Origin: Octopus vulgaris
Lineage: Eukaryota
Length of the DNA: 64,000 nucleotides
NCBI GenBank assembly: GCA_951406725.2
Contig: OX597814.1
Coordinates: 145,762,001-145,826,000, forward strand
Direction of reading: 5' to 3'
Shown in pieces: positions 2,700 to 56,650 of this stretch. How positions within the stretch are numbered: the stretch's first letter is position 1; every line of letters begins with the position of its first letter. The translations under genes and the position numbers were made by a program. The notes under the pieces are model-generated. The model saw nothing but the letters and a program-made list of their open reading frames with translations. It was not told where the DNA came from and ran no database searches.

Positions 2700-4780
2700 G
2701 GCAGATACATGTATGGACTTTTTGACCCCGCCCTCTTTCTTCTTCAGCCTTTCGGCCTTTTTTCTTCAACTATGCCCGGTACCTCACATTCTTTTCGATG
2801 TTTATTGCTAGCATTGAACATTCTCATCTCGGTGCGAAGGATCTGTAAAAGAGAGGTGTAATCGATGTAGTGAGATCCTTTATTCCTGAAAATAGGTGTG
2901 TTGTCGACAAGACAATCGTAGAAACTTTTATGAAGCATGCAAAATCAAAAGGTGGAAGTGGTTCAACTGGAGCGGGAAGTAGCTGTCTGCAGACAAACTA
3001 CAGTGTCTATCAAAGATGAACAAAATCAGGTAAAGAACGAGCCAAATTCCTTAAGGCTACATTTTGTGTAGCGGGAATGTCTGATGAAGAAGACAAAGGA
3101 CTGCAACATCGGGATGTTCGCCCTTGTGAAATTGCGACCAGCGAGAAACTTGTCTCAAGGACCATTGCTGCTATCAAGCGTTTCAACAAAACTTTCAACG
3201 TCTCAAATGATGGAAAGTTGTACAATCTAACATCCGGCTCTCCAGCTTCGGAAGAATTTGCGAAGGACATCCTCACTGGAAGACCGCTGGTAGACTAGCA
3301 AAGGCAGACATCAATAGAAAACACAATGAGAAAGGATGGCTTCTTTGATCCTATTAAACACCCAAAGTGGAAAACCTTGGTACACATGCACAAGTCCATG
3401 AAACTCTTAATTTCTCAAAGCAAAGTTGTCGAGTACAAGCAGCAGAGAAACATAGCGCTTCACTTACTAGTGAAGCCTCAAGCACAGATTGATCGGAAGC
3501 TTGTCCTTCACAAACTGTTGACTGGCAGTCAGGTTTTTAGCAAAAACAGTCAAATCGAAAAGCTTCAAACATGTTTTGAAAAATATGCTGATGCACAGTT
3601 ACCTGATCCAAGACAGAGCTTCATCATAGAGGATGGAACTGCAGTGTTCCATTACTTGCGTGAGATTCCACAAACATTCGGAGAAATATCTCGTAAGGTG
3701 TTGAGATCTGCGCTTCACCTGCTACCTGTCATATTTGGCACTGATATGTACAAGGAAAACTCTGTACAAGGGGTAGAACGAAACAGATGAGGTGTTTGAC
3801 ATATTCTGAGAGGTGAGAAAACAAATCGTCCGAAAGATCGGAAAGTCTTTCTTGAAAATGATGAGAACAAGACACAGTTCATTCAGCTTTTACTCACAAT
3901 TTGCAGGAGGGAGTTGTCTGCCGACATTCTCATCGGAAATGAGATGGTACTGATATGTGATACTTAACAGTTGATATTGGGTAGACATAACACATTCTGT
4001 CAAGAAATACACTCTCTCGAATATTCACAGGAAATACTGACACTCGTGAGATCCTGTATTGCATGTATGCCAAAGGGGGATGCAAATCCGTTTGCGTGAG
4101 AAGTCCCGATTCGCAGATTTTTCATCTTACTTCACCATACTAGATTCTTGGAAGGGCTTCAAACTCTGTTTGAAATTGGAAGACGACGCTCTATCGATGT
4201 GACCAGATTCGCTATGTCATCCACGCCTGTTCACTGTTCTACATTGCCAGGTTATCATGCTTTTACCGAGTGCGATAGTACCAGTGCCCTCAAAGAGAAG
4301 TGGGGAGCGAAGGGACTGAAAGTCGTTGAACCAGATGAATCATTCCAGAAAGCGTTCTCCAGGTTAGGGGAGTCTTAGGAATTTGACGAGGAGGTGATGA
4401 ATGAACTGGAGCGGTTCACATGTGTGCTGTATGGTAACAAAAGGGCAAAAAAGGTGAATACATTGCAGTTCACAGCCTTACGAGCAAAGTACGGTGGGAA
4501 GGATGATTTCACAAAATCTAAACAAGTCCATCTCGCTTCATTGCTCCCATGTAGAAACTTCCTCGAGCAACATGTTCGGCAAAGCAACTTCTAAACCAAG
4601 ATATAGAAGGTCGCGAACATTGCAAAGCCTTCACTGCCTATACCAGACAAAGGAAATGGACGGACGATGGAAGTTGGAATCATGAAGCTGAAATGGGCAG
4701 AGGGTGATGTGATGCTTCGTCATTTGGTGGATATTGTGGAAGAACTTGAAGATGAAATTGCGCATCACATTCTGATCCTG
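2700..4780 (+). pseudogene. Decayed transposase/XPG-nuclease ORF of an AcademX-like DNA transposon
   Basis: Frameshifted fragments carry DKTIVETFMKHAKSKGG, IIEDG, (H/Q)E-TDTR, VRSPDS, HAFTECDSTSA (H3TH-like HAFTGCD), LERFTCVLYG and LLPC..LEQH, in the order seen in XPG/PIN-type nuclease ORFs of Academ elements. Many stops; termini not found. Confidence 0.6.
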
Positions 4781-6068: not shown

Positions 6069-7457
6069 TCCCACATACATGATACCAACCACGCCCTCCG
6101 TCTCTTCAATTCCTTTTCCTTCCCTTCCAGCCCCTCACACCTCCTCTTCACCCTTGACATCAAATCACTGTATACGGTGATTCCCCACAACGACGGTCTC
6201 CTAGCTCTCCAACACTTCCTCGACCGTCGCCCCGACCCCACCCCTCCTCCGCCTGGCAGAGCTCGTCCTAACCCTCAACTGTTTCACGTTCGCCGGGGAA
6301 ACGTACGAACAGATGTCCGGGGTCGCCATGGGAACGAGAATGGGTCTCAATTTCGCCAATCTCTTTGTTGGCTACATTGAGGCCCAAGTATTCTCCCAAT
6401 TCTCCAGGCCGACCCCAGAACTATACGGTCGTTACATAGACGACTGTATAGGCGCCACCTCCCTTTCCCGCGAACAACGCTGCCACTTCATCTCTTTCCT
6501 CTCTAACTTCCACCCCTCTCTACAATTCACTTCCACCATATCCAATACTTCCGTTAACTTCATAGATATCTCACTCAGCATCGACCACCCCTCCGCCTTC
6601 TTCAAACCCACGGATTCCCACCTCTATCTCAACTCCTCCTCCCATCACTTCCACACCAAACGGGCTATCCCCTACTCCCAGTTCCTCCGCCTCCGACGCT
6701 TGTGCAGCCGCGACCAGGATTTCGAGACCCAGTCTCAATACCTGGCCCGCCTGTTCAGGCTTCGAGGACACCCACCTACCCTGGTCTTGAACGCCCTCGC
6801 CCGCGCTCGTCGCATCGACCGCACCACCGCCCTTTCTCCTTCCAATCACCCACCCCCCAACCGCACCCCCTTTCCCCTCCTTTTCCACCCCTCTACTCTA
6901 CCCCTTCGTCGGAAGATACTTCTCGCCTTCCGTCGTCTCCAGCTCGATTCCACGACCCACCCCTGTCCTCCTTCAAACGAGCCCGGAATCTACGCGACCT
7001 CCTGGTCCGTAGCACCCTCCCTTCTTCCCCCTCGGCCCCACACGGATCCTTCCCATGCACCAGATCCCGCTGCAACACCTGCCCCTTCATCACCAACACC
7101 ACTGCTGTCACCGGTTCCAACCGGCGAACTGTACGTATCAGGTATTCCTTTACGTGCACCTCGTCTGGACTCATATACTGCATTAAATGCAACCGCTGCA
7201 GGATGCTGTATATAGGACAGACGGGACGCCGGTTGTCAGACCGATTCACTGAGCATCTGCGGGATGTTCGTCTTTTTTCCAATTCTCCCGTCGCACGGCA
7301 CTTCCGCTCAGCCAACCATTCCCCCGATGACATCTCGGTGTTTGGCCTTGCCCCACACAACGGCTCTCCCCAATCTAGGCTTCACTTGGAGCAACGGTTC
7401 ATATTCCTTCTACGGACTCTAACCCCACACGGACTCAACACAGCCTTCTCCTCTTAG
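6067..7457 (+). pseudogene. Frameshifted PLE reverse transcriptase and GIY-YIG endonuclease
   Basis: LDIKSLYTVIPH, GVAMGTRMG..FANLFVG, RYIDD, FKPTD, Cys linker CTRSRCNTC, LIYCIKCNRC..LYIGQTGRRLSDRFTEH, E..FI..L.TL.P.GLN spread over several frames. Confidence 0.92.
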
Positions 7458-11069: not shown

Positions 11070-11520
11070 ATATATATACAGCGTTTTGACAGCAAAAATT
11101 AAAATGGATTTTTTGTACATCTCAAAACGCTGTATATATATGAATGGTGCCATTCATACCATGGGCTCCAAGAGAGCGTTTGTCGAAAAGCTTGCTGCGC
11201 ATTTTGTTGGAGATTTAAGTTCCTGGATTTTCCTGAAGAGAAAGCTGCAAAATGGTCTCCTTATTCAATCCGAATTAGGGACTTTGCAGCCTTTGAAACA
11301 TATGTAGAAAATAATAAAAAGGAATTTTGTAAAATCTTCGTTCAGCTCCATTTCTTCCCTCACTAAATATAAAAAACTTCAAATTTCCGCACTAAGGCAC
11401 GGTTTTGAGACCCCATGGTCGTAACCTCAACCATGATTTTTCTGTTGTGATTTTTGCTACCCAGGTATAGGTTATAATTTGAATAATCCGTAACAAGATA
11501 ATTCATTTATCCATTTCAAT
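11070..11520 (+). mobile_element. Solo pseudo-LTR of a sister subfamily of the intact PLE at 43-47 kb, with a small 5' fold-back
   Basis: Colinear with the reverse complement of 42991-43370 (catgggctc, CTGAAGAgaaag, cgttcagctccatttctt, gcacggtt, gatttttgctac..aggtat.ggtta); 19-bp inverted repeat at 11070-11140. Confidence 0.85.
11227..11312 (+). ncRNA. Type I hammerhead ribozyme
   Basis: attttc-CTGAAGA-gaaagctgcaaa...tttgcagccttt-GAAA-catatg-TA-gaaaat; all core nucleotides and three stems present. Confidence 0.85.
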
Positions 11521-12469
11521 AAAAAAATATATATATATACTCTAATATCGACACACACATATATATATTCATTATATACACACATGCATATACACACATA
11601 CACATACAAACATACTCACACACTCATACACACCTACACACATGCATATAGATATAAATATAAACCGGGATTTCACCACATGTCATATAAGAAGATATTT
11701 CAAATACACAATTATTAGAATTTGACATGTATGTATTAGTATGATTGTAACACAATACACAAATCCCGGTGAATACATCTAAGCATTGATTCACTAAATG
11801 AGCGCTCAAAAATAATTTTGAAATATGTGAAAAAAGGGAAAATCTGTGAGTGAAATAAATATTCGAAATGAACACATCTCGAATACACCCACAACTTTTA
11901 TCATTATATTCATCCTATCTTAAAGGCATCTCAGTATTTAGTCGTCTGCTCGCCTCATCAAGTCGTGCGGCATACGACAGATTGCTGTAAAGCCACATTA
12001 TAAATCACATCAGGTTAGACAGATTTAAGTATAATATTGCCAAGTTATGCAAAGGGAATGAAGTGGCCCTGTTTTTATGACGTAGTAAAAATGCCTGTGA
12101 ATTGTTTGACATGGAAATACATTGAGAAAAGTTAACATTCAGGGAAACATTTTTACGTATGTATTAAATAAACCCATAGGATGTACATAGAGCATATCTT
12201 AAATGGTGTAGTCGGATCTACAACTAAACAGTATATGAAATACATAAACGGGAAAAATTCACGTAAAAATTACCCATGGCTAAATGTACTTTTATATGTA
12301 TAATTACATTATGTTAACCTTCCAAGGTATCTAAATGTTTTGTTGATTTCCCCATTATATTCAGTTTAAATAAGTTATATTCCACTGAAGCTGTGCTATA
12401 AATAGCAGGCGGCCATGCCCGGTTGTATATAGCGACTAGTAAGCAATATAGATTCGAGTAGTCCCGAAT

Positions 12470-24165: not shown

Positions 24166-24406
24166 TTTTCTTACATGCATACATATATACATACATGCAT
24201 GCATATATATATATGTTTAAGTAGTTGAATGAATTATCCTGGTACGGATAATTCGGTTAACCGATACCCGGGTAGTAAATTTACGTCAGAAAGCACGGTT
24301 GAAGCTACATGCCAAGGGCAGAAATCACATGCTTTCGTGTGGACATTTGTGTGTTTTTTTACTATAGATAAATGAAGGAATGGAGTCGAACGACGATTTA
24401 ACAAAA

Positions 24407-24505
24407 TTCCTTTATTCTCGACGCATGTTTCGAAGACTGCATATTCTTAATTTCGAAGGAATAAAGGGTTCACTATGCCGTCTTCTCATCAGGAAAGACA
24501 AGGAA
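24407..24505 (-). ncRNA. Type I hammerhead ribozyme (left arm)
   Basis: Minus strand: CTGATGA-gaagacggcata...tatgcagtcttc-GAAA-catgcg-TC-gagaataaagg. Confidence 0.8.
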
Positions 24506-24573
24506 CTTATGTCAGCATCATGACAAACAAAAACTTTTTTAAAAGTCTTTGTTCGTCATGATGCTGACATAAG

Positions 24574-24672
24574 TTCCTTGTCTTTCCTGATGAGAAGACG
24601 GCATAGTGAACCCTTTATTCCTTCGGAATTAAGAATATGCAGACTTCGAAACATGTGTCGAGGATAAAGGAA
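24574..24672 (+). ncRNA. Type I hammerhead ribozyme (right arm)
   Basis: ccttgtctttc-CTGATGA-gaagacggcata...tatgcagacttc-GAAA-catgtg-TC-gaggataaagg. Confidence 0.82.
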
Positions 24673-24706
24673 TTTTGTTAAATCGTCGTTCGACTCCATT
24701 CTTTCA

Positions 24707-24848
<142 letters not shown>

Positions 24849-42950: not shown

Positions 42951-42992
<42 letters not shown>

Positions 42993-43198
42993 GTGAAATA
43001 GAAAGATGAATAATCTTGTAGTAGATTAATGAAAAGTTTAACCGATACCTTAGTAGCAAAAATCACAGCAGTAAACAGCACGGTTGGAGGTACAACCATA
43101 TGGTGTTGCAACCGTGCGTTGGTGCGGATAATTGAAATTAAAACATTATTGGTGAATTGAAGAAATGGAGCTGAACGCAGATTGAACAGAAATCGTTT

Positions 43199-43292
43199 TA
43201 TTTCATTCTACACGTGTTTCGAAAGGCACAAATTACCAAAATCCGAATGAATAATGGGACCATATTGTGTCTTTCTCTTCAGGAAGAAAATA
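43199..43292 (-). ncRNA. Type I hammerhead ribozyme in the 3' pseudo-LTR (sense to the ORF)
   Basis: Reverse complement of 47009-47102. Confidence 0.87.
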
Positions 43293-43877
43293 GGAAATCC
43301 GTTGGAAAAACAAAAACAGAACAGAGGCGGAGCAAAAACAAATCGAACTATGCTCCTAAGAGCCCATGGCGAAACTGTTTATCAGTGTATGTTGAGAACC
43401 GGTGGCTGAAGAATTTAACGGGTCAGGCATCGGTCAATCATGTGGGTGTGGGTGTGTAGGTGTTCTTTGTGACCGAGAATAAAGTTCTGACTATTTAAGG
43501 AATATTGGATGTTTTATAAGGGGCGAGAAAAAATCTACTTAGAGACGTGTGTGTGTGTATACTGTTCTATATATGTGTGTTGGCGTAGGGGTAGAAAACA
43601 TTTTTTGTGTACGTGTGTGCGTTTGATCGTTCGGCTGTCAGTGGCTACTGCCGTCAGAACCGCTGGGTGGCAGAAAAAAAATATATATATATTATGTTTT
43701 ATGTGTGTGTGTGTTCATCTAAGCCTGCCTTGTCAAGGAAACCCCCCGCTGTGAAAAAACCAAGCCCCGTTTGTCTTACAGGAGTAATTCCCCTTGCAGC
43801 GGCTAATCGTAGATATCTTAAAGGCTATTTCAGAATTTGTTACCAAGGGCTATGGGTGCCGGTATTATTTATAAACG

Positions 43878-46565
43878 CTATTTAAAAGCCAGATAAGTGT
43901 AGCGCCGCCAATGGGGGCATCGAAAAGCCGACTGTAAAAGCCCGTTTACCATCCGGCTTCTGGCAAACAAAATATGGAAGAGTTCGGAGACACAAAGGTT
44001 GCACTGCCTTCTGCCCCTATCAAATGGGAGGGCCACCGACAAAATTGACCATTCCAGCCTGTAGCTTAAGTTCGTATCATTCAGTCGCCATATTAGTTTA
44101 CTGAGTCCCGTGGTCTGGCGCTTGTTCATGTCCCGAAAAGTTGCGTAATGGTTGGAGACACGCAAAGACAATCTTGAGGATGAGGCCCCTACATAAGTGA
44201 AGACATCTGAGTCCGTGTAAACCTTGCATTGGTAGACGGCGTTTTTGATCTTGGAGTTCGCCGACGTGAATCTTATTCTGCTAGGATTAGTTTCTGAAAT
44301 TAGAACTGCGTTCCTGTCACTATATTCGTTCCGAGACCTGCAGCCGCTTACTACTCTATTTTCCACTACGTCACTATTAACTATAGGAATAACCCCTGAT
44401 TCTCCACTATCTATCAGAGTGCTGTCATTGCTACTGCCCGTGGTGCTGCTATTGCGGGAAATGATGCTGGGGATGCTATTGGGGCTCTCTACCCTACTCC
44501 CATTGTTACCTTCAACCACAACACCCCTATTTATAACTATACCCCTAGTGGGTACTCCCTGGCTGGAGCTGAGATTATGTGTCACTGTACTGGCTCTCAT
44601 ATCATTATTACTACTATAACTATTCTTACTGAGCATTAAACCGGGAGCGGAAGAGGCTGTGCCTCCGGAAAAAGGTGATAAGGTCTTAGTAAGTAGCCTA
44701 TTATTATGGGAGGCGATTATCTGGGCGAGGTTTTTAGTGTTGGAGAAAGCTATCCTAACTTTATGCGAGTTAACCGTGGAGTAATATTTGGAATTTCTGG
44801 GGAAGTTATTGGCGATGGCTTGTCTAAACATGAGGGGGAGGTTAGTTCTAATCTGCTTACCAAAGGGGATTACAAACCATATATGCTTATTCCTATCAGT
44901 GTGATGGGTCGGGACGCCAGCTCTCGCGTTCGGGTGGGTGATTCTCGGATGAACAACGGGTCTTGGGTTAGTGTAAGACCTCCCGGACCGATAATTATCC
45001 TTGTTCGATAAATTAAATGCGGGAGCGACTACCCCGGCATCCGCCGCGCTCCCGTCCTTACTTAAAATGTTAATGTTATTATATACGGCCCTATCCTGAT
45101 GACCGAATGATGGCATCGGAAGGGCCGGATCAATATAAATTACCTTCTGCCTATAACCGGCCTTGGATAGTGCGGCGTTATAAAATTCCGCTTTCTGCTT
45201 AAAAATATCGGCACTGGCGGACAAGCCAGACAATCTTAGAGAGATGTTTTTAACCAAATTGTCTGTTGCGGTTTTGGCATGATTTGAGAAGACACTGACA
45301 TACTTCAAATTAGTGGAAGGTTTATGGTAAGGGCAGTACGAGTCGCTATTAAGGTTAAGTGTAACGTCTAGGAAGTTAGCCTTGGTGAGTTCATTATCAA
45401 AAACTATACTCATGCCCATTCTATTAAAAAACCTAGCTAACCTGCTCTTAGTTTTCTGCACTATTCTGTTCGTGGTGTTTTGCAGGTAAAACAGACAATC
45501 GTCACGATACAGGCCGCCCGCGATCTCCGGGAATTGGTCGGACAATTCGTAGAGAATATATATTCCGACCAAATCGGCTATCTGCGCACTATCCGAACTA
45601 CCCATAGGCACATCAAATTCATTGGGAGTATCTTTACGGATCCACAACTTATTATCAAACTTAATAAACGATTTCCTGGCAACTAAAATGATATCTATCT
45701 CTTCTCTGGTGAGGCCAGCCTTGTTGTGAGCATGCCAGAGGGCCTTATTTAGCACACTAGGGTTAATCGAGGGGTAGAAGCTGGCGATATCAAACTGAAT
45801 GAACCTAGTACGGTTCTTATTGGGGATGGAAGAGAACCACTTCACTACCTGCGAGGAGTTGGCCCAGAGGCTGAGCTTCAGCTTGTTTACTAAACTAGGG
45901 ATATATTTATCTAAAATGTACTTACTGATTATCCCGATATCAGATCTAGCAGGGCATATGAGTCTTAGCGCTGGGTTGGTGTGGAAGTTCGGTTTATGGT
46001 CCTTCACTATAAATCTGGGTTGCTTAGGGCTAAGCGGCTGAGTTCTCATTTGAATTCGGTGTTTAAATATTATTTCCTTAATTTCCAAGTTTACCTTCCT
46101 CAGGGTACTCCAATTGGTTTTTCTATAATTTTTCTTGATCTCTTTACCGAGTAAATCTAGGTACTGCTTAATGGGCATCTTGTATGTGTTCCTGGTCTTG
46201 TCGGACTGGACCAGGACTCCGTCCGTTCTATTAATGTCCTTGGTAATTTTATCTAGGTATCTGAGGTGGGCATTTCTCCTGGGTGACTTCCTGAACTTAA
46301 TCTTTCTAACTATGTCCCACAAGTCGTCCTCAAACTTCTTCAGTCTTGGGTTAGGTGGCGGCGTATCCAATGTTTTAAAAAGCCGGCCGTATTCGGACGA
46401 TGCTGTTGTCCGGTTCGATTTTAGATCTTCGTTCTCGTGGAAGAAAATGAGCCATCTTATCCTGTTTATGAATGCGTTGGTTTTACAAACCAACTCCTTA
46501 AGGAAGGCATCCTTCGGTGGTATAGGAATATCCTTAAGGGACGCATCAATCTCGAACAACTCCAT
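43878..46565 (-). CDS. PLE polyprotein: reverse transcriptase plus C-terminal GIY-YIG endonuclease (895 aa)
   Basis: SDKT, KDHK..F..NP..RLI, FDIASFYPSI, FDVPMGS, GLYRDD, NFLDVTL, PYHKP; EN AVY-x12-YVG, R..NH, CNLC..E, VN, CPH. Confidence 0.95.
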   Translation of the reverse strand: MELFEIDASLKDIPIPPKDAFLKELVCKTNAFINRIRWLIFFHENEDLKSNRTTASSEYGRLFKTLDTPPPNPRLKKFEDDLWDIVRKIKFRKSPRRNAHLRYLDKITKDINRTDGVLVQSDKTRNTYKMPIKQYLDLLGKEIKKNYRKTNWSTLRKVNLEIKEIIFKHRIQMRTQPLSPKQPRFIVKDHKPNFHTNPALRLICPARSDIGIISKYILDKYIPSLVNKLKLSLWANSSQVVKWFSSIPNKNRTRFIQFDIASFYPSINPSVLNKALWHAHNKAGLTREEIDIILVARKSFIKFDNKLWIRKDTPNEFDVPMGSSDSAQIADLVGIYILYELSDQFPEIAGGLYRDDCLFYLQNTTNRIVQKTKSRLARFFNRMGMSIVFDNELTKANFLDVTLNLNSDSYCPYHKPSTNLKYVSVFSNHAKTATDNLVKNISLRLSGLSASADIFKQKAEFYNAALSKAGYRQKVIYIDPALPMPSFGHQDRAVYNNINILSKDGSAADAGVVAPAFNLSNKDNYRSGRSYTNPRPVVHPRITHPNARAGVPTHHTDRNKHIWFVIPFGKQIRTNLPLMFRQAIANNFPRNSKYYSTVNSHKVRIAFSNTKNLAQIIASHNNRLLTKTLSPFSGGTASSAPGLMLSKNSYSSNNDMRASTVTHNLSSSQGVPTRGIVINRGVVVEGNNGSRVESPNSIPSIISRNSSTTGSSNDSTLIDSGESGVIPIVNSDVVENRVVSGCRSRNEYSDRNAVLISETNPSRIRFTSANSKIKNAVYQCKVYTDSDVFTYVGASSSRLSLRVSNHYATFRDMNKRQTTGLSKLIWRLNDTNLSYRLEWSILSVALPFDRGRRQCNLCVSELFHILFARSRMVNGLLQSAFRCPHWRRYTYLAFK

Positions 46566-46613
46566 TATTGGTATCGGTTAAAGTAGCAGTTTCTTGACGA
46601 AGCGGTATGTATT

Positions 46614-46765
46614 ATGTGAAATAGAAAGATGAATAATCTTGTAGTAGATTAATCAAAAGTTTAACCGATACCTTAGTAGCAAAAATCACAGCAGTAAACA
46701 GCACGGTTGGAGGTACAACCATATGGTGTTGCAACCGTGCGTTGGTGCGGATAATTGAAATTAAA
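46614..46765 (+). repeat. Direct repeat of 42991-43142 (pLTR segment A)
   Basis: One mismatch seen (taatGaaaag vs taatCaaaag); offset 3623 bp. Confidence 0.97.
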
Positions 46766-46767
46766 GC

Positions 46768-47153
46768 ATTTTTCTCGCCCCTTATAAAACATCCAATATT
46801 CCTTAAATAGTCAGAACTTTATTCTCGGTCACAAAGAACACCTACACACCCTCACCCACATGATTGACCGATGCCTGACCCGTTAAATTCTTCAGCCACC
46901 GGTTCTCAACATACACTGATAAACAGTTTCGCCATGGGCTCTTAGGAGCATAGTTCGATTTGTTTTTGCTCCGCCTCTGTTCTGTTTTTGTTTTTCCAAC
47001 GGATTTCCTATTTTCTTCCTGAAGAGAAAGACACAATATGGTCCCATTATTCATTCGGATTTTGGTAATTTGTGCCTTTCGAAACACGTGTAGAATGAAA
47101 TAAAACGATTTCTGTTCAATCTGCGTTCAGCTCCATTTCTTCAATTCACCAAT

Positions 47154-47162
<9 letters not shown>
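46768..47162 (-). repeat. Inverted copy of 43139-43534 (pLTR segment B)
   Basis: The 81-aa track ORFs 43214-43459(+) and 46842-47087(-) differ by one residue. Confidence 0.97.
47009..47102 (+). ncRNA. Type I hammerhead ribozyme in the inverted 5' pseudo-LTR
   Basis: tattttcttc-CTGAAGA-gaaagacacaa...ttgtgcctttc-GAAA-cacgtg-TA-gaatgaaata. Confidence 0.87.
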
Positions 47163-56267: not shown

Positions 56268-56650
56268 GTTAATCCAAACATGAAAACACAACAACGCTAG
56301 GACGTGGAACAAGTATAATGTTTTTGGAGGCTCAGGAAAGGAAAGACAGAAGGAGGACACAACGTTTCGAGCGGAACTCTTCGTCAGAAACATAGGAAAA
56401 GGAAAGACCCAAAGAAGGGAAGACAGAGGAAAAAATGGTCAACGATACACTCGCGGTCACATATTGAATGACCGGAAGGGAGTGGGTGAAGAAAAAATTC
56501 TTTCAAAGACAGGAGAGTGCAAGAGAAGGAGGTATGCGTTTGTATGTGTGAGTATGTGCGTGCGCACAGGTTTGTGTGTGTGTGTGAGTGTGTATGTGTG
56601 TGTGTGTAATGATAGCACAGGTGTCTTGTGTGTGTATGGTTGTAGCTGTT
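56268..56650 (-). mobile_element. 3' end of the Neptune-like PLE family with hammerhead core at 56357-56392 and a short CA-rich tract
   Basis: Minus strand tgttt-CTGACGA-a-gag(ttccg)ctc-GAAA-cg-TT; terminus homologous to 10130-10311. Confidence 0.75.

Follow-up and report, generated by a model that had tools for sequence, protein, structure and literature searches.

The reverse transcriptases (RTs) of Penelope-like elements (PLEs) are the closest mobile relatives of telomerase. The Hydra clade comprises PLEs with a C-terminal endonuclease (C-terminal EN+ PLEs; Craig et al. 2021, PMC8557442), and the accessible text of that paper describes no RNA structure in them beyond the hammerhead. EN+ PLEs carry an optional tail at one end and a head-to-head inverted 5′ copy (PMC3846280, PMC8557442), which the available portions of these papers treat qualitatively and explain by endonuclease-mediated resolution or antisense self-priming, and a circular PLE template has been proposed earlier (PMC4209133). 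Poseidon PAc of Anolis carolinensis cuts and extends both target strands in vitro, with internal starts at two sites that delimit the tail (Frangieh et al. 2024, PMC11167929, as far as its accessible text goes). The present analysis concerns 64,000 nt of the Octopus vulgaris genome, 2.8 Gb in size (assembly GCA_951406725.2, contig OX597814.1, positions 145,762,001 to 145,826,000; hereafter the window), in which positions 42983 to 47162 are a young Penelope-like retroelement on the minus strand. A preliminary description of the window had drawn attention to a 13-bp inverted repeat beside the start codon of this element. The main result beyond that description is a two-fold symmetry in the predicted RNA fold around the repeat, with two putative start sites, A and B, of which each insertion uses one A and one B.

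The element and its open reading frame (ORF), flanked by pseudo-long terminal repeats (pLTRs), are as follows.

42983..47162, minus strand: whole insertion, with an inverted pLTR piece, a partial direct pLTR, leader, ORF and 3′ untranslated region (UTR)/pLTR, and (TA)n on both flanks
43878..46565, minus strand: ORF of 895 aa, with RT (SDKT, YRDD), C-terminal GIY-YIG-type endonuclease, CxxC and CxH, without the CxCx5C linker

The perfect repeat (46570-46582 with 46660-46672) was confirmed, and on the minus strand its 3′ arm is followed by AATA and the ATG (46565-46563) that opens the 895-aa ORF. When the 301-nt region was shuffled 2000 times with dinucleotides preserved, an inverted repeat of at least 13 bp appeared once. 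As had been stated, the leader half is restricted to the 5′ copy, the 3′ copy ending at TTTCACAT on the border of (TA)n. Comparison and predicted folds identify this stem as the central helix (P1) of a fold of ~270 nt between the hammerhead and the start codon, organized as P0[linker A - hairpin A - motif - P1[P2 - linker B - hairpin B - motif]]. The modeled layout is two-fold pseudo-symmetric, because each P1 strand has on its 5′ side an unpaired UA-rich linker, a hairpin and the short common motif UGCUAC. The parts of the fold lie at the following positions.

43164..43173, minus strand: P0 5′ strand, in the 3′ pLTR; inverted at 47128-47137 and missing from this copy's 5′ direct pLTR
43139..43163, minus strand: linker A, with site A (ends −197 to −210 from the ATG)
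46676..46760, minus strand: hairpin A, then UGCUAC before arm 1; inner stem 46701-46740, outer limit approximate
46660..46672, minus strand: P1 5′ arm (arm 1), with a second copy at 43037-43049
46631..46654, minus strand: P2 hairpin inside the P1 loop
46605..46630, minus strand: linker B, predicted unpaired, with site B (ends −40 to −47 from the ATG)
46583..46605, minus strand: hairpin B, then UGCUAC, directly before arm 2
46570..46582, minus strand: P1 3′ arm (arm 2), within the leader and separated from the AUG by 4 nt
46557..46566, minus strand: P0 3′ strand, with the AUG and first codons

The folding energy of the post-cleavage RNA of a tandem unit has a z score of −5.57. In the outer helix P0, CAGCUCCAUU is predicted to pair with the AUG and the next codons. 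Pair probabilities are 0.96 to 0.98 for P0, P1, P2 and the inner part of hairpin A, the AUG is predicted paired at 0.97, and the linkers are predicted unpaired at 0.86 and 0.77. Of 16 aligned copies, 15 preserve the P0 core, CUCCAU/AUGGAG. In two runs, contigs lack a stretch of 72 or 76 nt spanning most of hairpin A (L171:5282-5359), with non-splice ends; the RT of the library preparation may have jumped the hairpin, or the variant may carry a deletion.

For the window's own lineage, 80 diverged copies were fetched. Among 85 own-lineage leaders, 32 without an intact junction were dropped and the remaining 53 collapsed to 27; two with deletions in arm 1 (L075 and L138) were excluded from alignment A2. 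The arms read GUAUCGGUUAA and UUAACCGAUAC in the window, versus GUAACUAUUCA and UGAAUAGUUAC in a subfamily at ~63% protein identity. Over 25 representative leaders P1 is 88.7% paired, with two-sided changes at 4 of 12 pairs; slid controls for the whole structure are 26 to 47% paired, and both the percentage paired and the covariation score are better than in all 500 of 500 shuffles. The compensatory changes in sister subfamilies support the earlier proposal of a conserved, covarying RNA structure that needs a pLTR-leader junction. The sense strand tolerates G-U pairs in the fold. No Rfam covariance model matched over the fold among the 150 of 189 window matches listed, those listed being microsatellite driven only, and none relevant was found in 20 distant loci.

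A metagenome scan yielded 76 loci at 28 to 39% protein identity, 56 with and 20 without a recognizable N terminus. A hairpin GCUC...GAGC followed by ACU occurs twice between the hammerhead and the ATG in 38 of the 46 distant loci with at least 130 nt upstream; of 427 ORF windows taken as controls, 0 have the two motifs. The 4-bp stem is present at A in 29 and at B in 33 of 35 nonredundant distant elements, with UCUC/GAGA variants. The two 24-nt stretches that follow motifs A and B of one element pair with a mean of −10.96 kcal/mol over the 35 elements, compared with −5.90 for mismatched partners; own-arm pairing beat 100,000 permutations (best, −7.78 kcal/mol), and the register is symmetric (median positions 4-18 in arm 1 and 4-17 in arm 2). 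P0-like pairing with the start region likewise favors the element's own partner in 25 elements (−12.10 versus −8.31; best permutation, −10.52), the other 10 of 35 being left out because no hairpin A stem was found or the upstream sequence was too short. The published consensus Hydra-1_Ajap starts at hairpin A and has both GCUC...GAGC-ACU motifs, and a Hydra-type family in the same genome that bears the RWK motif carries the same module. An 837-aa family in that genome (L342-L344) has a very AT-rich, strongly self-paired leader without the GCUC/GAGC motif. The 836-aa and 837-aa families there (8 loci together) yielded no usable ends; four loci of a 718-aa family and one of the 836-aa family were not parsed.

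The element ends follow the same two-part plan. Upstream of the ATG, (TA)n flanks 101 of 106 termini, and these 101 all lie at site A (42) or site B (59), 157 nt apart and each within the linker just 5′ of a hairpin; end positions may include TA microhomology. Outward-facing end pairs are A+B in 34 of 35 cases, the sole B+B pair being nested in an A+B insertion. The same holds for all 11 pairs of the 63% subfamily and all 3 of the RWK family, in which only 3 of 12 loci have an inverted end in reach and the ends precede hairpin A by 1 nt and hairpin B by 4 or 14 nt. Pooled over the three families, 48 of 49 two-ended pairs are A+B, where independent use of two sites predicts about half. The window copy ends at B at 42983 and at A at 47162. 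Where the hammerhead region alone served to choose the loci (30 loci), the end listed first is A in 17 and B in 13. Of the full-length copies, 12 have an inverted piece that stops at A and 4 have one that stops at B, so either cDNA can be the long one, and the head-to-head junction has a gap of at most 10 nt in 13 of 19 copies with a listed inverted piece. Among distant elements, 14 of 23 mapped ends lie 0 to 8 nt 5′ of a hairpin, divided equally between A (7) and B (7). Contigs of four runs, whose RNA status is a guess, have loose ends of (TA)n at site B; a single contig spans the pLTR-leader junction by 33 nt; a contig joint from 6000 to 2400 was set aside since it only reflects the permuted reference. 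In some copies (leaders L207, L202 and L105) (TA)n runs occur inside linker B, which suggests that new copies insert into the flank of an older copy and rebuild the tandem junction.

The hammerhead and the further pLTR copies in the window bear on the nature of the template.

43200..43291, minus strand: type I hammerhead motif in which stem II is long and stem III palindromic, recognized by pattern, with covariation judged by eye; cleavage predicted between 43209 and 43208
46769..47162, plus strand: inverted 394-nt piece, with a hammerhead at 47010-47101, ending at site A
11230..11539, plus strand: diverged sister pLTR that contains a hammerhead and stops at site B, next to (TA)n
24195..24716, minus strand: diverged sister fold-back insertion, with one end at site B and the inverted end near site A; limits approximate

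The motif GGTAT(C/A)GGTTA was found again in the two sister pLTRs, at ~11463 (plus strand) and ~24255-24268 (minus strand). A hairpin assigned to 11397-11435 held up for one arm; the second arm reads AACCATG, so the hairpin is imperfect. No hammerhead match was found in Rfam among the 150 of 189 window matches listed. According to the preliminary description, hammerhead cleavage would fall just upstream of the stem. The cut predicted for full tandem units lies 267 nt upstream of the AUG and ~160 nt upstream of the P1 5′ arm, and the window copy, whose 5′ direct pLTR starts ~209 nt before the ATG, has no sense-strand hammerhead there, so that this part of the proposal does not hold. None of 34 main copies starts at −267, three start within 12 nt of it, and there is no pile-up; the hammerhead cut was therefore rejected as the template's 5′ end. 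Eight of the 34 extend at least 1,450 nt upstream, three of the eight being one array. An abundant subfamily (L068, L072 and L113; 1,233 candidate sites) has the core CCGAAGA instead of CUGANGA, ~330 nt before the ATG, and was amplified with the usual A+B ends; judging from these sequences, hammerhead cleavage may be dispensable or tolerant of the change. Other CTGANGA...GAAA hammerhead-like cores in the window, at 56387 and 41474 (minus strand) and at 3081 and 43 (plus strand), probably belong to other PLE families.

It is likely that the fold docks two RT/endonuclease copies and sets two RT start points, each used once per insertion; this reading draws on sequence comparison and predicted folds, and docking, dimer formation and priming are themselves predictions. 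Each hairpin with its motif would bind one RT/endonuclease, and P1 would hold the two in opposite orientations. The endonuclease would cut both strands of a (TA)n target, each target 3′ end would anneal to a UA-rich linker, and two overlapping cDNAs would run upstream on one RNA and be joined head to head, yielding an inverted pLTR and a one-sided tail of ~157 nt, the segment A of the preliminary description. Because copies cross the hammerhead site and some exceed the unit by more than 1,450 nt, the template would be longer than one unit at the hammerhead, either a religated circle or an uncut tandem transcript. More weakly, P0 would hide the AUG, and the RNA might switch between a translated and a template form. 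The full version for Hydra-type Penelope elements, in which one circular RNA forms a two-fold symmetric scaffold that keeps a dimer of the RT/endonuclease over a double-strand cut in (TA)n, both cDNAs start at once at two fixed sites and the AUG is hidden in the same fold, is put forward tentatively, at slightly less than even chances. Of the roles suggested earlier, RT binding or priming is the one that the analysis supports.

Several observations weigh against this reading. End patterns cannot separate two RTs acting simultaneously from one RT acting twice. Just 17 of 35 distant arm pairs beat shuffles of their own composition at p<0.05, and in 11 of 35 the own arm ranks first as partner. 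Of 23 distant ends, 9 fall outside the range of 0 to 8 nt before a hairpin. The homology of the window hairpins to the GCUC/GAGC motif is suggested by position and partial likeness only, and hairpin A is far larger in the window lineage than in distant relatives. The counts of covarying pairs and of pair types, two of five measures, are no better than in shuffles (175/500 and 115/500), and the compensatory changes of the window lineage trace to few branch events. The loci used for end counts are best-scoring young copies, 30 of them picked with a query ending at B, and two pairs of identical span may be a single duplicated locus. A dimer prediction for residues 1-492 scored 0.12 against a mark of 0.32, which counts neither for nor against a dimer.

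Poseidon PAc resembles the present system in its two internal starts bounding the tail, the cutting and extension of both strands, an AT-rich target, a template that needs the pLTR-ORF junction, a predicted dimer and in vitro insertion without a need for hammerhead cleavage (PMC11167929). In that element, however, the sites lie within a stem-loop inside the ORF and the tail is 30 to 40 nt, whereas here both sites are upstream of the AUG and 157 nt apart; no difference in start site was seen between the strands, and the accessible text of PMC11167929 reports no duplicated hairpin motif, symmetric scaffold or one-site-per-strand rule. Unlike the published accounts of EN+ PLEs, as far as their available portions go, the tail and inversion are here tied to an RNA structure and counted (48/49 A+B). 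Two other systems offer further likenesses, with no homology claimed. In LINE-1 twin priming, two primers on one RNA give rise to a 5′ inversion; that process is opportunistic and produces nonoverlapping pieces, whereas fixed starts and overlapping cDNAs are proposed here. In HIV-1, long-range pairing of U5 with the AUG conceals the start codon within a helix when the RNA is in its replication form, as P0 may do.

A single RT might instead start at one site set by the same fold, the other end arising later through a template switch, second-strand synthesis or endonuclease recognition of a DNA motif. Genomic end patterns do not reveal the timing of the two ends, and in their accessible portions earlier papers ascribe the tail to endonuclease-mediated resolution (PMC8557442), state with a citation that the endonuclease of D. 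virilis Penelope needed the tail for recognition (PMC11167929) and propose self-priming on an antisense template for inverted junctions (PMC3846280). This account is nevertheless unlikely: both ends face outward into (TA)n with a long cDNA at either, both lie equally far 5′ of their matching hairpins, and the G-U tolerance of the sense strand fits RNA and not DNA or antisense.

The main role of the fold could also be translational control, by cap-independent initiation after hammerhead cleavage, with the end pattern as a by-product; we regard this as quite improbable. Cap-independent translation is aided by hammerhead cleavage in some viruses (PMC13725137, in its accessible part), P1 ends a median of 5 nt from the AUG, and P0 takes in the start region in many elements, as the 25 tested elements show. 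However, the 4-nt gap to the AUG is not constant across the 35 distant elements, where it ranges from −13 to +38 nt, and the abundant subfamily has CCGAAGA for the CUGA core. A simple translation enhancer, as first suggested, fits poorly with an AUG that is predicted to be buried in a second helix; the buried AUG suggests an off-switch rather than an internal ribosome entry site. Translational control also leaves unexplained the duplicated motif beside two DNA end points, one each.

That AG/GTAT is the 5′ splice site of a 5′-UTR intron, as in Penelope and Chlamys-3, with the stem incidental, is very improbable. Two characterized PLEs have 5′-UTR introns (PMC8557442, accessible text), and the 63% subfamily contains GTAAC and CTAAC as well as an AG ahead of its ATG; but no AG occurs between arm 2 and the ATG in the window subfamily and most sisters, one multicopy subfamily has GTTTC, of the 35 distant elements 8 have GT at arm 1 and 10 have YAG, and no GT-AG joint is among the 4 joints listed from the four runs of contigs. 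The intron explanation, flagged at the outset as a check, fails because neither donor nor acceptor is conserved. Inverted duplications are common in these elements, but a chance repeat or functionless template-switching relic has a negligible probability against the compensatory changes, the own-partner preference in 35 distant elements and a motif found in 0 of 427 control windows.

The element is an EN+ PLE by its single ORF with RT and GIY-YIG endonuclease (YRDD, SDKT and VY..YVG motifs), by a hammerhead whose core, stems and covariation agree in pattern, with cleavage predicted, and by partial-tandem pLTRs, an inverted 5′ copy and a one-sided tail. There are 106 homologues, and the window protein has no Pfam match. 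The family is numerous, with 1,178 candidate sites in the genome (40 of them scored), and its tandems have a repeat unit of 3,625 nt. In the traits given in the accessible text of PMC8557442, the element is like the Hydra clade in having RT plus C-terminal GIY-YIG, DKT (SDKT at residue 121), a C terminus with CxxC and CxH (CNLC and CPH), a type I hammerhead and a (TA)n target (101/106 termini). It differs in its diverged hairpins and in the RWK position, which reads RWL in the window lineage and RWK/RWR in 35 of 40 full-length homologues. The CxCx5C linker before the endonuclease is absent from the window protein and all 5 of 5 sister proteins, while a CxC..C pattern is found in 38 of the 40, and the unit exceeds the general size of <3 kb, with a low-complexity insert in the ORF. 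On this sequence evidence the element is filed as Hydra-related and not as a Hydra-clade member, because of RWL and the missing linker despite the match in DKT, CxxC, CxH, hammerhead and (TA)n. In a quick unrooted tree without named Hydra members or an outgroup, the lineage sits on a long branch beside P0001, P0002 and P0010. Naiad/Chlamys membership was ruled out, since those have an N-terminal endonuclease and this one is C-terminal; an initial Naiad assignment was dropped in light of PMC8557442, as far as its text is accessible. At 43881-44600 the lineage lacks the cysteine linker and has a variable Asn/Ser-rich insert (ORFs of 775 to 903 aa); (TA)n targeting despite the lost linker questions the proposed targeting role of the linker. 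A weak tblastn match to RT (E 3e-4, 24% identity) within long open frames at 6205-7457 is probably another retroelement fragment.

No description of the RNA fold or of a strict A+B rule was found in the literature searched, in which subscription journals were thinly covered and which included the accessible portions of PMC8557442, PMC11167929, PMC4209133, PMC3846280, PMC7229834 and bioRxiv 10.64898/2026.07.22.740005; the RNA fold in Fig. S2C of PMC11167929 and the supplement of the preprint may bear on it. The class of element is known, as are the one-sided tail and the inverted pLTR; the cis-acting structure is real, conserved and apparently undescribed, and the fold and the A+B rule are apparently new. 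This ~270-nt cis-acting RNA has hairpins predicted to bind protein, two putative start sites at exact positions and compensatory variants in nature, so that simple mutants can test the mechanism; a short portable RNA directing cDNA synthesis from both strands of a cut in (TA)n could interest builders of retroelement-based DNA writing tools. For the origin of the inverted repeats and one-sided tail of PLEs, the structure offers a concrete, testable candidate explanation. If double priming is true, it would be a mode distinct from the target priming of R2 and LINEs and from LTR priming, and would be the source of the tail and inverted pLTRs in PLEs in general.

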